Notes: generated by a model from the sequence alone, not told the origin. Shown: positions 10,783 through 19,996, counted from the whole stretch's first letter. The stretch is 60,571 nucleotides of DNA, filler included, from Candidatus Hydrogenedentota bacterium (GCA_040752395.1; 6 parts of 6 records of this genome joined end to end with filler, not necessarily neighbours in it), one strand, 5' to 3'. Program-made: numbers and translations.

Positions 10783-11022
10783 ATGGTAAATAGTAATAAT
10801 AAAACAGAGAAAAAAGATGATGACTGGAAGATAGCTGTGCTTCAGGCGTCATCTGTTGGGTTTGTAATGGTTTTCTCTGTTTTAATAGGGCTGGCTATAG
10901 GATTGTGGCTTGATAAGTTGTTAAGAACAACACCCTGGCTTATGATTATTGGTATATTTATAGGTATGTTCTCTGGTTTTTACAGTATATGGTTGATAAT
11001 GAAAGAGATAGCGAAACATTGA
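10783..11022 (+). CDS. atpZ: AtpZ/AtpI-family ATP synthase accessory protein (gene 1)
   Basis: SSVGF...IGLAIGLWLDK...TTPWLMIIG; first gene of the atp operon. Confidence 0.85.
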   Translation: MVNSNNKTEKKDDDWKIAVLQASSVGFVMVFSVLIGLAIGLWLDKLLRTTPWLMIIGIFIGMFSGFYSIWLIMKEIAKH

Positions 11023-11402
11023 TTTTTAAGATAATAATCTTAACAAATATTATTCTTGCATTTTTAAGCTTGTTGACTCTTTTAATTAGCAAAATAGCTA
11101 AATTAAAAATAATAGCTTTTCTTTCTGGTGAGATTTTCGGGTTAATATTATTTGGTACCTTAATTTTAATTTCGAGAATTATTATTTCAGAGTATATAAC
11201 TAAAAAGAAGCTTTATAAACTTGTATTACTTTTGATTATATATTTATTTAAATTTTTATTAGTTTTTGGAATAGTATATATTTTATTAATCGAATTAAGA
11301 TTGAGTGCTATATATTTTTCATCAGGGTTTACTTTATTATTAGTTTCCATAGTAATCGGTACATTGATTTACGGATTCAGGTTAATTATAAAAATAAAGT
11401 AA
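10989..11402 (+). CDS. atpI: ATP synthase protein I (start uncertain)
   Basis: Four-TM hydrophobic ORF between gene 1 and atpB. Confidence 0.7.
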   Translation: MVDNERDSETLIFKIIILTNIILAFLSLLTLLISKIAKLKIIAFLSGEIFGLILFGTLILISRIIISEYITKKKLYKLVLLLIIYLFKFLLVFGIVYILLIELRLSAIYFSSGFTLLLVSIVIGTLIYGFRLIIKIK

Positions 11403-11419
11403 ATAAATAAAATTAATGC

Positions 11420-11448
11420 TTGCACGGATACTGTGATATATTTACAAT
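11420..11448 (+). promoter_or_regulatory. Sigma70-type promoter of the higBA remnant
   Basis: TTGCAC-N17-TACAAT. Confidence 0.6.
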
Positions 11449-11461
11449 AATTCAAGATATT

Positions 11462-11623
11462 ATGGTTATCTCTCTTGGCAACCAGGCGACTGCGGATTTA
11501 TATCATAACCGACAGACATCACGCGTACGTCGGTTTCCACGTGATATTATACCAACAGCATTAAGAAGATTAGACATGTTAAATGCGATTACATCCTGGC
11601 ATTCTCCTCCTGCGTATCAATGA
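11462..11623 (+). pseudogene. higB: HigB/RelE-family toxin, truncated
   Basis: MVISLGNQATADLY...ALRRLDMLNA matches the HigB N-terminus; C-terminal half missing. Confidence 0.8.
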
Positions 11624-11783
11624 AATTGTCCAAAAAAAACGAGGGGTAACCCCTGAAACTGCATGGTTATTAGCACAAGCGTTTGGCACCTCGACTGAAT
11701 TCTGGATCAATTTGCAGACCTCATTTGAGCTATCCAGGCCAAAACCTAAACGAGCTATTCCAAAACCGAAACTTGCAGTATGA
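11583..11783 (+). pseudogene. higA: HigA antitoxin, internally deleted
   Basis: HPG-ILL joined directly to RINEIV..KRGVTPETAWLLAQAFGTSTEFWINLQ. Confidence 0.8.
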
Positions 11784-11787
11784 AATT

Positions 11788-12582
11788 ATGATTAAGCGAT
11801 TTTTAGTAATGATTTTTATTTTTTTACCTGCTATCTTGATAGCAAAAGCAGGTGGCGAAAGTCATACCACTACTGTTTTTGTATATCTCTCTTTTCTTGA
11901 GAAATATCTATATGATCATAAAAATGTAGCAATTATTTCTTCTACCTGGTTTGTAATGATAATGTTATGGTTATTTTTTTATTATAGTAGCAGAAAAGAA
12001 AGATTGATACCTAACTTAATGCAGGGGATTGCAGAGAGTATAGTTCTTTTATTTTATAATTTTTTGAAAGAGCAGCTTGATGAGAGACGTGCTACTAAAT
12101 ATTGTACATTTATAATCTCGCTTGGTTTATTTATATTTTGCGGTAATTTTTTAGGGTTGGTGCCAGGGTTTGAAGGCACTACTGCGAATTGGTCAACAAC
12201 CGCAGCTTTAGCTATACTTGTTTTTATTTTTTATAATATGTGTGGTATTATTGAGATGGGGTTCTGGAAACACATCGGTCATTTCTTTGGACCCAAACTG
12301 CCATGGTATCTAAAAATTATAAATCTTTTTTTATTTCCTATAGAATTAATAAGTCATCTTGTAAGACCGTTATCGTTATCTTTACGGCTTGCAGGTAATA
12401 TGACAGGGGGTCATGTTGTAATTGGCATATTTTTAGGTCTTACTGCGATCCCTTTGATATATCCCATACCTTTGATGGGGTTAGAATTTGTTGCAGCGAT
12501 AGTTCAGACTTTTATTTTTGTTTTACTGACCACTATATATATAAAATTAGCAACTGATCACACAGAAGGCGAAGGACATTAA
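11788..12582 (+). CDS. atpB: F0 subunit a
   Basis: PIELISHLVRPLSLSLRLAGNMTGGH, QTFIFVLLT; likely start ATG 11788. Confidence 0.97.
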   Translation: MIKRFLVMIFIFLPAILIAKAGGESHTTTVFVYLSFLEKYLYDHKNVAIISSTWFVMIMLWLFFYYSSRKERLIPNLMQGIAESIVLLFYNFLKEQLDERRATKYCTFIISLGLFIFCGNFLGLVPGFEGTTANWSTTAALAILVFIFYNMCGIIEMGFWKHIGHFFGPKLPWYLKIINLFLFPIELISHLVRPLSLSLRLAGNMTGGHVVIGIFLGLTAIPLIYPIPLMGLEFVAAIVQTFIFVLLTTIYIKLATDHTEGEGH

Positions 12583-17498: not shown

Positions 17499-17662
17499 AA
17501 GATTGAAAGATACGGCGAGAAAGTGTATATTTTCGCTTTCTTTACTTTTAACTTTTGACTTTTTACTTTTAACTTTTAACTTGTCATAGGAGTTAGAAGT
17601 TAGGAGTTCGTGATAATAGATCCGAGCTCCGAACTCCGAACTCCGAACTTTTTTAGAGGGGG
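17499..17662 (+). repeat. Mosaic intergenic repeat, modules G-A, ending in SD of atpD
   Basis: Nearly identical to 40691-40801. Confidence 0.95.
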
Positions 17663-17666
17663 AACT

Positions 17667-19118
17667 ATGCACAACATAGGTAAAGTACAGCAGGTGATAG
17701 GACCTGTGGTAGATGTTGAGTTCGAAAAAGGGAAATTACCACCAATATATACCGCGCTTAAAATAATATATCCTGAAAGTAACATCAATCTTACACTTGA
17801 GGTGGAGCAGCATTTAGGTGATTCAATAGTAAGAGCTGTTGCTATGTCTTCGACTGATGGTCTGGTAAGAGGAATGGAAGTTATTGATACAGCGGATTTT
17901 ATCAGGGTTCCGGTTGGTAAAACAGTTCTGGGTCGTCTTTTAAATCTTATCGGTGAACCGATAGATGAGCTTGGAGAAGTAAAGAGTGAAGACAACTGGG
18001 CTATACATAGAGAACCACCCTCGTTTGAACAGCAATCTACGGAGCAGAAGATGTTTGAATCAGGTATAAAGGTTATAGATTTACTTGCACCATATTCAAA
18101 GGGTGGCAAGACCGGGTTATTTGGTGGTGCGGGTGTAGGGAAAACTGTCTTAATAATGGAGTTAATTAGGAATATTGCAACGGAGCATGGTGGTGTTTCA
18201 GTATTTGGCGGTGTTGGTGAACGGACTCGAGAGGGGAATGATTTATGGTTAGAGATGAGAGAGTCAGGTGTTATTAATAAAACAGCGCTTGTATTCGGTC
18301 AGATGAATGAGCCGCCTGGTGCAAGATTTCGGGTCGGGTTAAGTGCTTTAACAATCGCTGAATATTTTAGGGATGTTTACGGTTTGGATGTGCTTTTATT
18401 TATAGATAATATATTCAGGTTTGTGCAGGCAGGTAGTGAGGTTTCAGCCCTGCTTGGCAGGATGCCCTCTGCTGTTGGTTATCAACCAACACTTGGCACA
18501 GATTTAGGCGAGCTTCAGGAACGAATCACTTCTACGAAAAAAGGGTCGATAACTTCAGTACAGGCTATTTATGTACCAGCGGACGATTTAACAGACCCGG
18601 CTCCTGCTACGACATTCTCACATCTTGATGCCACAACTGTTTTATCGCGTCAGATCGCAGAACTCGGAATTTATCCAGCAGTTGATCCACTTGATTCTAC
18701 AAGCAGGATACTTAACCATAGAATCCTGGGAGATGAACATTATAGAACAGCAAGAGAGGTTCAAAAAATTTTACAGAGATATAAAGACCTGCAGGATATT
18801 ATTGCGATACTCGGGATGGATGAATTAACAGAAGAAGACAAATTAATTGTTAGTCGGGCAAGAAAGATACAGAAATTTTTATCGCAACCCTTTTTTGTAG
18901 CAGAGGCATTCACAGGCGAGAAAGGTAGATACGTTAAATTACAAGATACTATCAAAGGGTTCAAAGAGATAGTCGCAGGTAATGTTGACCATATACCTGA
19001 GCAGGCATTTTATATGGTTGGCACATTAGAAGAGGTTTTAGAAAAAGCAAGAAGTATCGAGCTTGAGATAAAGAAAGCAGAAGAAAAAGAAAAGGAAAAG
19101 AAAGTAAGTGCTGCTTAA
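17667..19118 (+). CDS. atpD: F1 subunit beta
   Basis: [15 protein letters not shown]; start ATG 17667 after GAGGGGG. Confidence 0.99.
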
Positions 19119-19133
19119 TACGAGGAGGAGATT

Positions 19134-19355
19134 ATGAAATATACTATTATATTAAAGAAAGGGAAAGAGAGTGGATATACAGCGGTTGTCCCTGCGTTAA
19201 AAGGATGCGTTTCACAAGGGAAGACAAGAACAGAAGCCTTGAAAAATATTAAAGAAGCGATTCAATTATATGTTGAGACATTATTAGAAGATGGGATGAC
19301 TGTCCCAAGAGAAGAATATAAAGACATAGTGGAATTGAAGGTTGCAGTTAGATGA
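19134..19355 (+). CDS. hicB: HicB-family antitoxin
   Basis: GYTAVVPALKGCVSQGKT..EAL.NIKEAI. Confidence 0.93.
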   Translation: MKYTIILKKGKESGYTAVVPALKGCVSQGKTRTEALKNIKEAIQLYVETLLEDGMTVPREEYKDIVELKVAVR

Positions 19356-19575
19356 CAAAAATCCCGAGAGGATTAAGTTATAAGAAGGTTATTAATAATT
19401 AATGAAATGCGGATTTTATATAAAAAGACAGAAAGGAAGTCATATAGTCTTAAAACGAGATAGCCCGTACTCTTTAGTTATAGTTCCTGCACATAAATCT
19501 ATTGATACAGGGACGCTTGATGAAATAATAGAGAGTGCAGGTTTAGCACTTCAGCAATTTGTAGATATGCTATAA
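19352..19575 (+). pseudogene. hicA: HicA toxin with a 1-nt frameshift near codon 16
   Basis: MTKIPRGLSYKKVIN / LMKCGFYIKRQKGSHIVL...VIVPAH...GTLDEII; 224 nt. Confidence 0.88.
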
Positions 19576-19585
19576 AGGAGACGAG

Positions 19586-19996
19586 ATGGCGATTAAAGTA
19601 GAAATCACAACTCCGTTTGGCAAGGTTTATGAAGATACCGCAGATATGGTGATTGTTCCCGCAGAGTTAGGCGAGCTTGGAATATTGCCAGGACATACGC
19701 CATATCTTGCGAACTTATCAATGGGTGTTATGAGAATAAAAAAAGACAGCAACACAGAATATTTTGCAGCTAATAAAGGGTTTGTAGAGATAAACCCTGA
19801 TAGAGTTGAGGTATTATGTGAAACCTGCGAGAACGCAAAAAAGATCGATATCAATCGTGCCATAGAAGCAAGGGATAGGGCTGTGTTTCGGTTAAAAGAA
19901 AGAAAAAAAGGGGTCGATTTACAGAGAGCTGAGATAGCGTTAAAAAAAGCGTTACTGCGATTAAAAACCGCTAATGTTTCTAAAATATATCAATAA
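19586..19996 (+). CDS. atpC: F1 subunit epsilon
   Basis: GELGILPGHTP, GFVEI. Confidence 0.97.
   Translation: MAIKVEITTPFGKVYEDTADMVIVPAELGELGILPGHTPYLANLSMGVMRIKKDSNTEYFAANKGFVEINPDRVEVLCETCENAKKIDINRAIEARDRAVFRLKERKKGVDLQRAEIALKKALLRLKTANVSKIYQ

Follow-up and report, generated by a model that had tools for sequence, protein, structure and literature searches.

Toxin-antitoxin cassettes and mosaic repeats at five of the nine gene junctions of a bacterial ATP synthase operon

The operon and its enlarged junctions

The ATP synthase (atp) operon examined here comes from an uncultured bacterium on a deep branch and lies in a window of 60,571 bases. In this study, we found toxin-antitoxin (TA) cassettes at three junctions of the operon and mosaic repeats at two others. 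The window consists of six draft-genome contigs (C343, C344, C345, C346, C348, and C349) joined by N/TTAATTAATTAA linkers. Since the linkers separate contigs, gene neighbourhood across them is not true synteny. The window is not one continuous piece of chromosome. The operon arrangement described in the first-pass annotation was confirmed, and all of its parts are on C344. This contig (window positions 10362-20577; 10,216 bases) holds the entire atp operon and all inserts, and both of its ends lie inside mosaic repeat copies. The genome (G000) comprises 2.84 Mb in 349 contigs, with a GC content of 34.8% and a completeness of 93.8%.

Genes for the a, c, b, delta, alpha, gamma, beta, and epsilon subunits were all matched by Pfam, in canonical order and on one strand (Table 1). 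It had been noted beforehand that five of the nine atp junctions are interrupted and that the atp genes and inserts are co-oriented. The open reading frame (ORF) listing and the Pfam searches on C344 agreed on the five interruptions, and in the ORF listing every atp gene and insert was on the + strand. Four junctions were tight: atpZ/atpI (-34 nucleotides (nt)), atpE/atpF (44 nt), atpF/atpH (-4 nt), and atpA/atpG (5 nt). The other five were enlarged. A higBA remnant was located in atpI/atpB (385 nt), an RHH-PIN pair in atpH/atpA (772 nt), and a hicB-hicA pair in atpD/atpC (467 nt), while mosaic repeats were located in atpB/atpE (244 nt) and atpG/atpD (168 nt).

Table 1. Positions of the atp genes, inserts and contig linkers in the window. 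aa, amino acids; SD, Shine-Dalgarno sequence.
Feature	Position	Strand	Description
Linkers	10262-10361, 20578-20677, 30835-30934, 40802-40901, 50717-50816		Between contigs
atpZ-like	10783-11022	+	79 aa; PF09527 ATPase_gene1, E 7.7e-17
Probable atpI	10989-11402	+	137 aa, hydrophobic; overlaps atpZ by 34 nt
higB remnant	11462-11623	+	N-terminal ~54 codons of a RelE/ParE-HigB-type toxin; C-terminal half gone
higA remnant	11583-11783	+	C-terminal half of HigA; in another frame, overlaps the higB remnant
atpB (a subunit)	11788-12582	+	PF00119, E 3.8e-48
Mosaic copy 1	12583-12826	+	Entire atpB/atpE spacer; its end provides the AGGAGG of atpE
atpE (c subunit)	12827-13132	+	101 aa; PF00137, E 1.1e-11
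atpF (b subunit)	13177-13659	+	PF00430, E 7.6e-22
atpH (delta/OSCP)	13656-14192	+	PF00213, E 5.4e-30
Promoter-like site	14201-14234	+	TTGACT-17-TACAAT; consensus scan, 10/12 matches
Antitoxin-like gene	14264-14518	+	84 aa from ATG; weakly RHH-like
PIN (VapC-type) toxin gene	14496-14912	+	138 aa; PF01850, E 5.6e-12; apparently intact
atpA (alpha)	14965-16623	+	552 aa; PF00006, PF00306, PF02874
atpG (gamma)	16629-17498	+	PF00231, E 3e-102
Mosaic copy 2	17499-17666	+	Entire atpG/atpD spacer; other modules; hairpins, T-run, atpD ribosome-binding site
atpD (beta)	17667-19118	+	PF00006, PF02874, PF22919; start is the ATG behind the SD
hicB	19134-19355	+	73 aa; PF15919, E 9.4e-14, profile positions 1-58 of 123
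hicA	19352-19575	+	Codons 1-16 (19352-19399), then a stop; other 57 codons (19402-19575) in a different frame
atpC (epsilon)	19586-19996	+	PF02823, PF00401; 10 nt past the hicA stop, which its SD abuts

We next compared the operon with 84 other atp loci, namely 80 metagenome contigs (many from gut) and four genome loci, whose gap lengths were extrapolated from tblastn. Gaps of more than 200 nt occurred at atpH/atpA in 0 of 18 loci, at atpA/atpG in 1 of 74, at atpG/atpD in 1 of 74, at atpD/atpC in 0 of 51, and at atpB/atpE in 0 of 12. Among 20 loci from diverse genomes read by the author, an F1 junction exceeded 200 nt only in two (L082 and L089). The statement that atp operons are normally compact thus holds in these samples, with such gaps in at most 1 of 74 loci per junction. 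In L082 (contig C6 of genome G026), the minus strand carries co-oriented ORFs of 285 aa (6298-7155) and 186 aa (8086-8646) at atpG/atpD and atpA/atpG, respectively, neither with a Pfam family. This genome has one of the two nearest relatives of AtpA.

The operon was the sole rotary ATPase detected in the assembly. Two weak alpha/beta homologues were found elsewhere, on C348 and C90; the former is probably a flagellar ATPase. A second rotary ATPase as the cause of relaxed selection was considered and rejected, as no V-type operon was found in the 93.8%-complete assembly.

The ORF preceding the atpI/atpB junction was not matched by Pfam or NCBIfam searches, including PF03899. Its ESM Atlas neighbours were ATP-synt_I clusters, with a score of 0.87 (bar, 0.9), 199 shared features, and TM scores of 0.72-0.76, which serve as a lead only. 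It is designated probable atpI from its position before atpB and from these neighbours below the bar. The start of atpB was set provisionally at the first ATG past the higA-remnant stop, and relatives align only from about residue 64. Relatives of AtpD align from residue 2-3.

Cassettes and repeats in the spacers

The atpI/atpB junction contained two pieces of a HigBA-type module. The internal ATG at 11462, from which the higB remnant was counted, lies within an ORF at 11420-11623. The product aligned at 41% identity with residues 1-54 of a Planktothrix plasmid toxin that is 80 aa long (tblastn and BLASTP; pairwise E 2e-14), a RelE/ParE-family protein whose gene is directly upstream of a HigA gene. 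Pfam searches up to an E of 10 did not recognize the higB remnant, and PF05015 also missed it. The higA remnant matched TIGR02607 at profile positions 36-76 of 81 (E 1.1e-12; 47.6 bits at a cut-off of 47.7) and was the sole match of this profile in the genome. In an alignment with the HigA of Planktothrix, it covered residues 38-78 at 71% identity. Neither a full HigB-type toxin nor a full HigA antitoxin with its helix-turn-helix domain is present. Since only the outer halves of toxin and antitoxin are left, the C-terminal half of the toxin and the N-terminal half of the antitoxin were lost in a single internal deletion; compared with the Planktothrix module, about 235 nt are missing. Its GC content was 0.43-0.44, compared to 0.344 +/- 0.035 for genes of the genome. 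This GC content and the identity to a cyanobacterial plasmid HigA suggest a recent acquisition.

The first-pass annotation also described atpB as lacking an obvious SD and starting 4 nt past the higA-remnant stop. Inspection of the upstream sequence bore this out, and the higA-remnant ORF has no SD of its own either. As no SD is present at the left border of the higBA insert either, the absence of one before atpB may be an ancestral trait.

In the atpH/atpA junction, the antitoxin-like gene and the PIN toxin gene overlap by 23 nt. The product of the former matched the ribbon-helix-helix (RHH) families RHH_3 (E 0.01) and RHH_1 (E 0.097), both under the Pfam cut-off. The PIN protein aligned with VapC26 (PDB 5x3t; E 1.3e-8), and D8, E46, D99, and D118 were paired with acidic residues. 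Relatives of the PIN protein, 33-54% identical, were spread over many phyla; of 80 such loci from other phyla, 32 had an RHH-like homologue directly upstream of the PIN gene and none had atp genes within 4 kb. This wide spread, the upstream partner, and the lack of atp neighbours mark RHH-PIN as a putative mobile two-gene module. The four paired positions of the PIN protein are presumably the catalytic set.

An 11-nt inverted repeat (82% complementary) covers both hexamers of the promoter-like site upstream of this pair. The site is a candidate autoregulated promoter/operator of RHH-PIN. Promoter-like sites were not enriched across the region (45, compared to 35.6 +/- 6.1 in shuffles). The terminator scan found no terminator-like site between RHH-PIN and atpA.

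The atpD/atpC insert had been described as a hicB-hicA cassette. The two families were confirmed, but hicA is not intact, being frameshifted. Known HicB structures are 92-148 aa long, and HicB aligned with their residues 1-57 (PDB chains, E 1e-5); it consists of the N-terminal domain only, the C-terminal DNA-binding domain being missing. As hicB starts 15 nt past the atpD stop, there is no room for a hicBA promoter. HicA matched PF07927 at profile positions 10-58 only (E 3.9e-13), and a full-length HicA is not present in this sequence. When the frame was read through with an X at the break, the product aligned end to end with an intact paralogue on C341, and PDB 1whz aligned with the HicA only from its residue 16. 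The closest paralogues in the genome were 46-51% identical for HicB and 48% identical for HicA.

The two mosaic repeats differ from the cassettes in their fit to the spacers, as each spans from the stop codon of the upstream gene to the ribosome-binding site of the next. At least 50 matching places were found for copy 1 among the matches listed, with 86-93% identity over most of its length; the search gave 573 first-look candidates, of which 40 were scored. The modules of copy 2 each occur 20-60 times in the genome. Both copies were predicted to fold into hairpin arrays (RNA fold z of -3.57 for copy 1 and -4.73 for copy 2). Strong + strand terminator-like hairpins between atp genes were found only in the atpG/atpD mosaic.

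The 22-nt end of the atpB/atpE copy occurs 305 times in the genome with up to three mismatches. A start codon follows 3-10 nt downstream in 236 of these, and in 189 of the 236 it opens an ORF of at least 60 codons. Since this end module carries AGGAGG, the ribosome-binding site of atpE comes from the repeat. The end of the atpG/atpD copy is a rarer variant, with 11 copies, five of which lead into an ORF of 60 codons or more.

Genome-wide counts and features beside the operon

The first-pass annotation proposed that TA cassettes and mosaics use the same niche and possibly the same insertion route. The former is true only in the trivial sense that both occupy intergenic junctions. The latter was not supported: the two kinds of insert share no DNA, the TA junctions contain no mosaic modules, and no significant direct repeats were found. 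A search of the TA-bearing junctions against the genome gave no mosaic or other DNA match except two short AT-rich ones. Target-site duplications were considered for the three TA inserts (atpI/atpB, atpH/atpA, and atpD/atpC) and rejected. The two sides of each insert shared words of at most 6, 9, and 6 nt, and these lengths were reached in 1148, 118, and 555 of 2000 shuffles, respectively. The TA cassettes showed nothing like the fit of the mosaics between stop codon and ribosome-binding site.

The mosaic family was then counted in searches with the four mosaic stretches found on C344. The census gave 676 merged loci with 81,323 bases on 273 of the 349 contigs, and mosaics were located at 188 of the 698 contig ends. 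With the crude longest-ORF gene calls that underlie all genome-wide tests here, mosaics were found at 231 of the 1799 junctions between co-directional ORFs (12.8%), at 22 of the 277 between convergent ORFs, and at 45 of the 265 between divergent ORFs. An enrichment of mosaics in the operon was rejected, as the chance of at least two in nine junctions at the 12.8% rate is about 0.32.

Profile searches for toxins found six PIN, 12 HicA, seven ParE/RelE, two MazF, nine HepT, and no Gp49 places. One PIN place, in a 346-aa protein, was set aside and the higBA remnant was added, giving 36 toxin places. This number is a lower bound, as the census was limited to seven toxin families. The HigB-like profile PF05015 gave one weak match in the genome, which was not counted, and PF05973 gave none. 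The Rfam search returned only a chance snoRNA match (E 0.11). At least five of the 12 HicA places were truncated or interrupted (a stop on C179 and on C156, shortened forms on C20 and C90, and the frameshift on C344), and one of the six PIN places contained stops. Toxin decay seems to be general in this genome.

An enrichment of TA genes inside operons had also been suggested. In a crude test, both of the nearest large flanking ORFs were co-oriented for 12 of 21 TA places, compared to 263 of 493 small ORFs; enrichment was not found. This test dropped 15 of the 36 TA places and 400 of the 893 small ORFs, which had no ORF of at least 180 aa on one side. Other TA cassettes of the genome also lie co-directionally among housekeeping genes, which is no more than expected from this test: hicB between trpE-trpG and NIF3; RHH-PIN_3 between GT1 and Wzy, followed by HEPN-MNT; hicBA between GT4 and fliD; hicBA before hisB; and mazEF before hsp70.

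On contig C341 (G000:C341:1-5000; L194), three or more ORFs for retropepsin-like aspartyl proteases form a one-strand tandem array with hicB-hicA and two MNT-HEPN pairs, and a similar protease is paired with DUF5678 on C156. On C319 (L182, 1638-7506), the genes for an R.HinP1I-type restriction enzyme and a DNA methylase and a HicA-containing cluster of small genes are all located directly upstream of an EF-G gene and co-oriented with it.

Some features of the operon proteins and of a neighbouring gene were also recorded. AtpE has a C-terminal extension of about 30 aa and a Q...ES....Y pattern around the carboxylate, which may represent the Na+-binding signature that certain F-type c rings carry. 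AtpA contains an extra segment in the nucleotide-binding domain at about residues 310-360, and PF00006 matched it as two stretches. Its length of 552 aa compares with open frames of 501-541 aa in most comparators, and the extra segment was aligned straight through only with the AtpA of G022 (62% identity) and G026 (60%). A gene for a 132-aa membrane protein (20028-20426, + strand) starts 31 nt past atpC and is followed by a mosaic copy and the contig end. Its Pfam matches were all below threshold (DUF4233, E 3e-5; SxtJ, E 6.5e-5).

Interpretation and comparison with known systems

The gene identities, the breaks, the junction anatomy, the repeat census, and the absence of shared DNA are directly established. 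With these in hand, we consider it probable that the inserts are tolerated selfish passengers, which were inserted independently and are now at different stages of decay in the sole rotary ATPase operon of the genome. Three unrelated type II TA cassettes would have landed in the same orientation at atpI/atpB, atpH/atpA, and atpD/atpC. These insertions were probably independent of one another. The cassettes belong to different TA families, and none was recently copied from elsewhere in the genome, given paralogues of 46-51% identity and no other HigA, which supports independent insertion. The cassettes may ride on the atp transcript, as suggested by the missing space for a hicBA promoter and by the lack of terminators; the scan found no + strand terminator-like site after any cassette. 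The higBA module was disabled by one internal deletion (about 0.23 kb) and hicA by its frameshift, while the RHH-PIN pair appears to be still intact, with a candidate autoregulated promoter. Toxin decay may have been favoured because the operon is strongly expressed. The mosaics would fill their spacers with hairpins and supply the ribosome-binding sites of atpE and atpD, as they appear to do elsewhere in the genome.

Several observations weigh against this explanation. The presence of three cassettes in this nine-junction operon has a P of about 2.7e-4 under uniform placement, which leaves room for a real preference of TA cassettes for the atp operon; however, such clustering somewhere in the genome is not rare by chance, as in about 18% of simulations some nine-junction run held at least three of the 36 cassettes (p ~0.18). 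The intact frames in the higBA remnant and the short hicB could reflect selection for function, and the hicA frameshift could be a sequencing error instead of a mutation. The operon is also isolated. The nearest AtpA relatives are 58-62% identical, all 30 genome relatives belong to other families, and the metagenome scan gave an AtpA identity of 60% at most. All seven operon proteins that were looked up were singleton 90% clusters known from C344 only, and the higA-remnant ORF was absent from that protein collection.

It is unlikely, in our judgement, that the inserts have been domesticated for regulation, so that the RHH-PIN promoter drives atpA-atpG-atpD-atpC as a tunable F1 unit and the higBA remnant serves the SD-less atpB as promoter and coupling ORF. 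The promoter-like hexamers and their inverted repeat do precede atpA by 733 nt, a stretch free of terminator-like sites, and the cassettes are located exactly at module borders, before Fo (atpB), F1 (atpA), and epsilon. The position of the SD-less atpB just past the higA-remnant stop and the open frames of the remnant would also fit. However, this AT-rich region shows no enrichment of promoter-like matches, a by-eye promoter candidate for higBA failed the criteria of the consensus scan, the higA-remnant ORF itself has no SD, and the missing SD of atpB may be ancestral. The first-pass annotation had suggested that TA autoregulation may be wired to the energy genes. This is possible for RHH-PIN only, whose read-through could add a regulated input to atpA-atpG-atpD-atpC. 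The antitoxins of the other two cassettes are probably unable to bind DNA, HicB having only its N-terminal domain, 15 nt from atpD, and HigA lacking its N-terminal half (the first 35 profile positions).

A bolder version, in which the TA cassettes are internal control points, is quite unlikely. Antitoxin degradation under stress would then raise F1 transcription, the dead higBA would provide the Fo genes with a promoter free of repression and with an ORF for coupling, and addiction modules would set the Fo:F1 expression ratio. We consider it very unlikely that RHH-PIN, and formerly the other cassettes, were kept in the atp operon as defence or stress modules for its constitutive high transcription. 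The acidic residues of the PIN protein and the presence of its partner gene would agree with this, as would about 36 toxin-family places in 2.84 Mb, some of them beside a restriction-modification system; two of the three operon toxins are broken, however, there is no phage-related context, and TA places are no more embedded in operons than other small ORFs. An assembly artefact, in which TA cassettes were stitched between atp genes in a chimeric contig, is hardly credible even though the draft is fragmented into 349 contigs with repeats at many contig ends. The TA junctions are unique and have no repeat at their borders to mislead an assembler, and the spacers measure just 4-72 nt, with matching ribosome-binding sites. 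The canonical gene order is kept across five inserts, and five chimeric joins that each restored it are implausible.

If the inserts are indeed tolerated passengers, the operon shows how far selfish DNA can invade an essential, highly conserved operon while the gene order is kept, and one locus captures three stages of a TA life cycle, with one cassette intact, one carrying a frameshifted toxin, and one of which only a stub is left. Should the atp genes receive promoters or translational coupling from the cassettes, this would be a concrete case in which core energy metabolism has recruited addiction modules. For now, the operon mainly documents that the intergenic spacers of this lone-phylum genome are unusually permissive. 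It is also a warning for annotation, as rules based on compact operons fail here.

TA-like modules in housekeeping operons have already been published. A full-text literature search, judged on titles and abstract openings, found no TA cassette inside an atp operon. An MNT-HEPN module is located inside the lysine operon of Thermus thermophilus HB8 (PMC2701414). That case likewise concerns a mobile type II TA-like two-gene module in a housekeeping operon and was read as evidence of recent mobility. The present operon differs in that it is known from a single genome and in that one essential operon carries three cassettes, each from another family than MNT-HEPN, of which two are broken.

Each cassette also has its own counterpart. 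The gene order of the higBA remnant is like that of the HigBA module on the Planktothrix agardhii plasmid NZ_LR882937.1 (toxin WP_042158682.1, HigA WP_072005276.1), from which it differs in keeping the outer halves only, with about 235 nt missing. The hicB-hicA pair shares the HicB N-terminal domain and the HicA toxin family, which resembles a double-stranded RNA-binding domain, with antitoxin-first HicBA systems (structures 6g1c, 6g1n, and 4p78), and the same gene order is found at other places in its genome. In contrast to those systems, its HicB lacks the C-terminal DNA-binding domain, hicA is frameshifted, and there is no space for a promoter. RHH-PIN differs from VapBC26 (5x3t) in its RHH assignment below the cut-off, its low identity to VapC26, and its location between atpH and atpA without a terminator. 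It resembles VapBC26 in a PIN protein with four aligned acidic residues, an overlapping small antitoxin gene upstream, and a promoter-like site with an inverted repeat.

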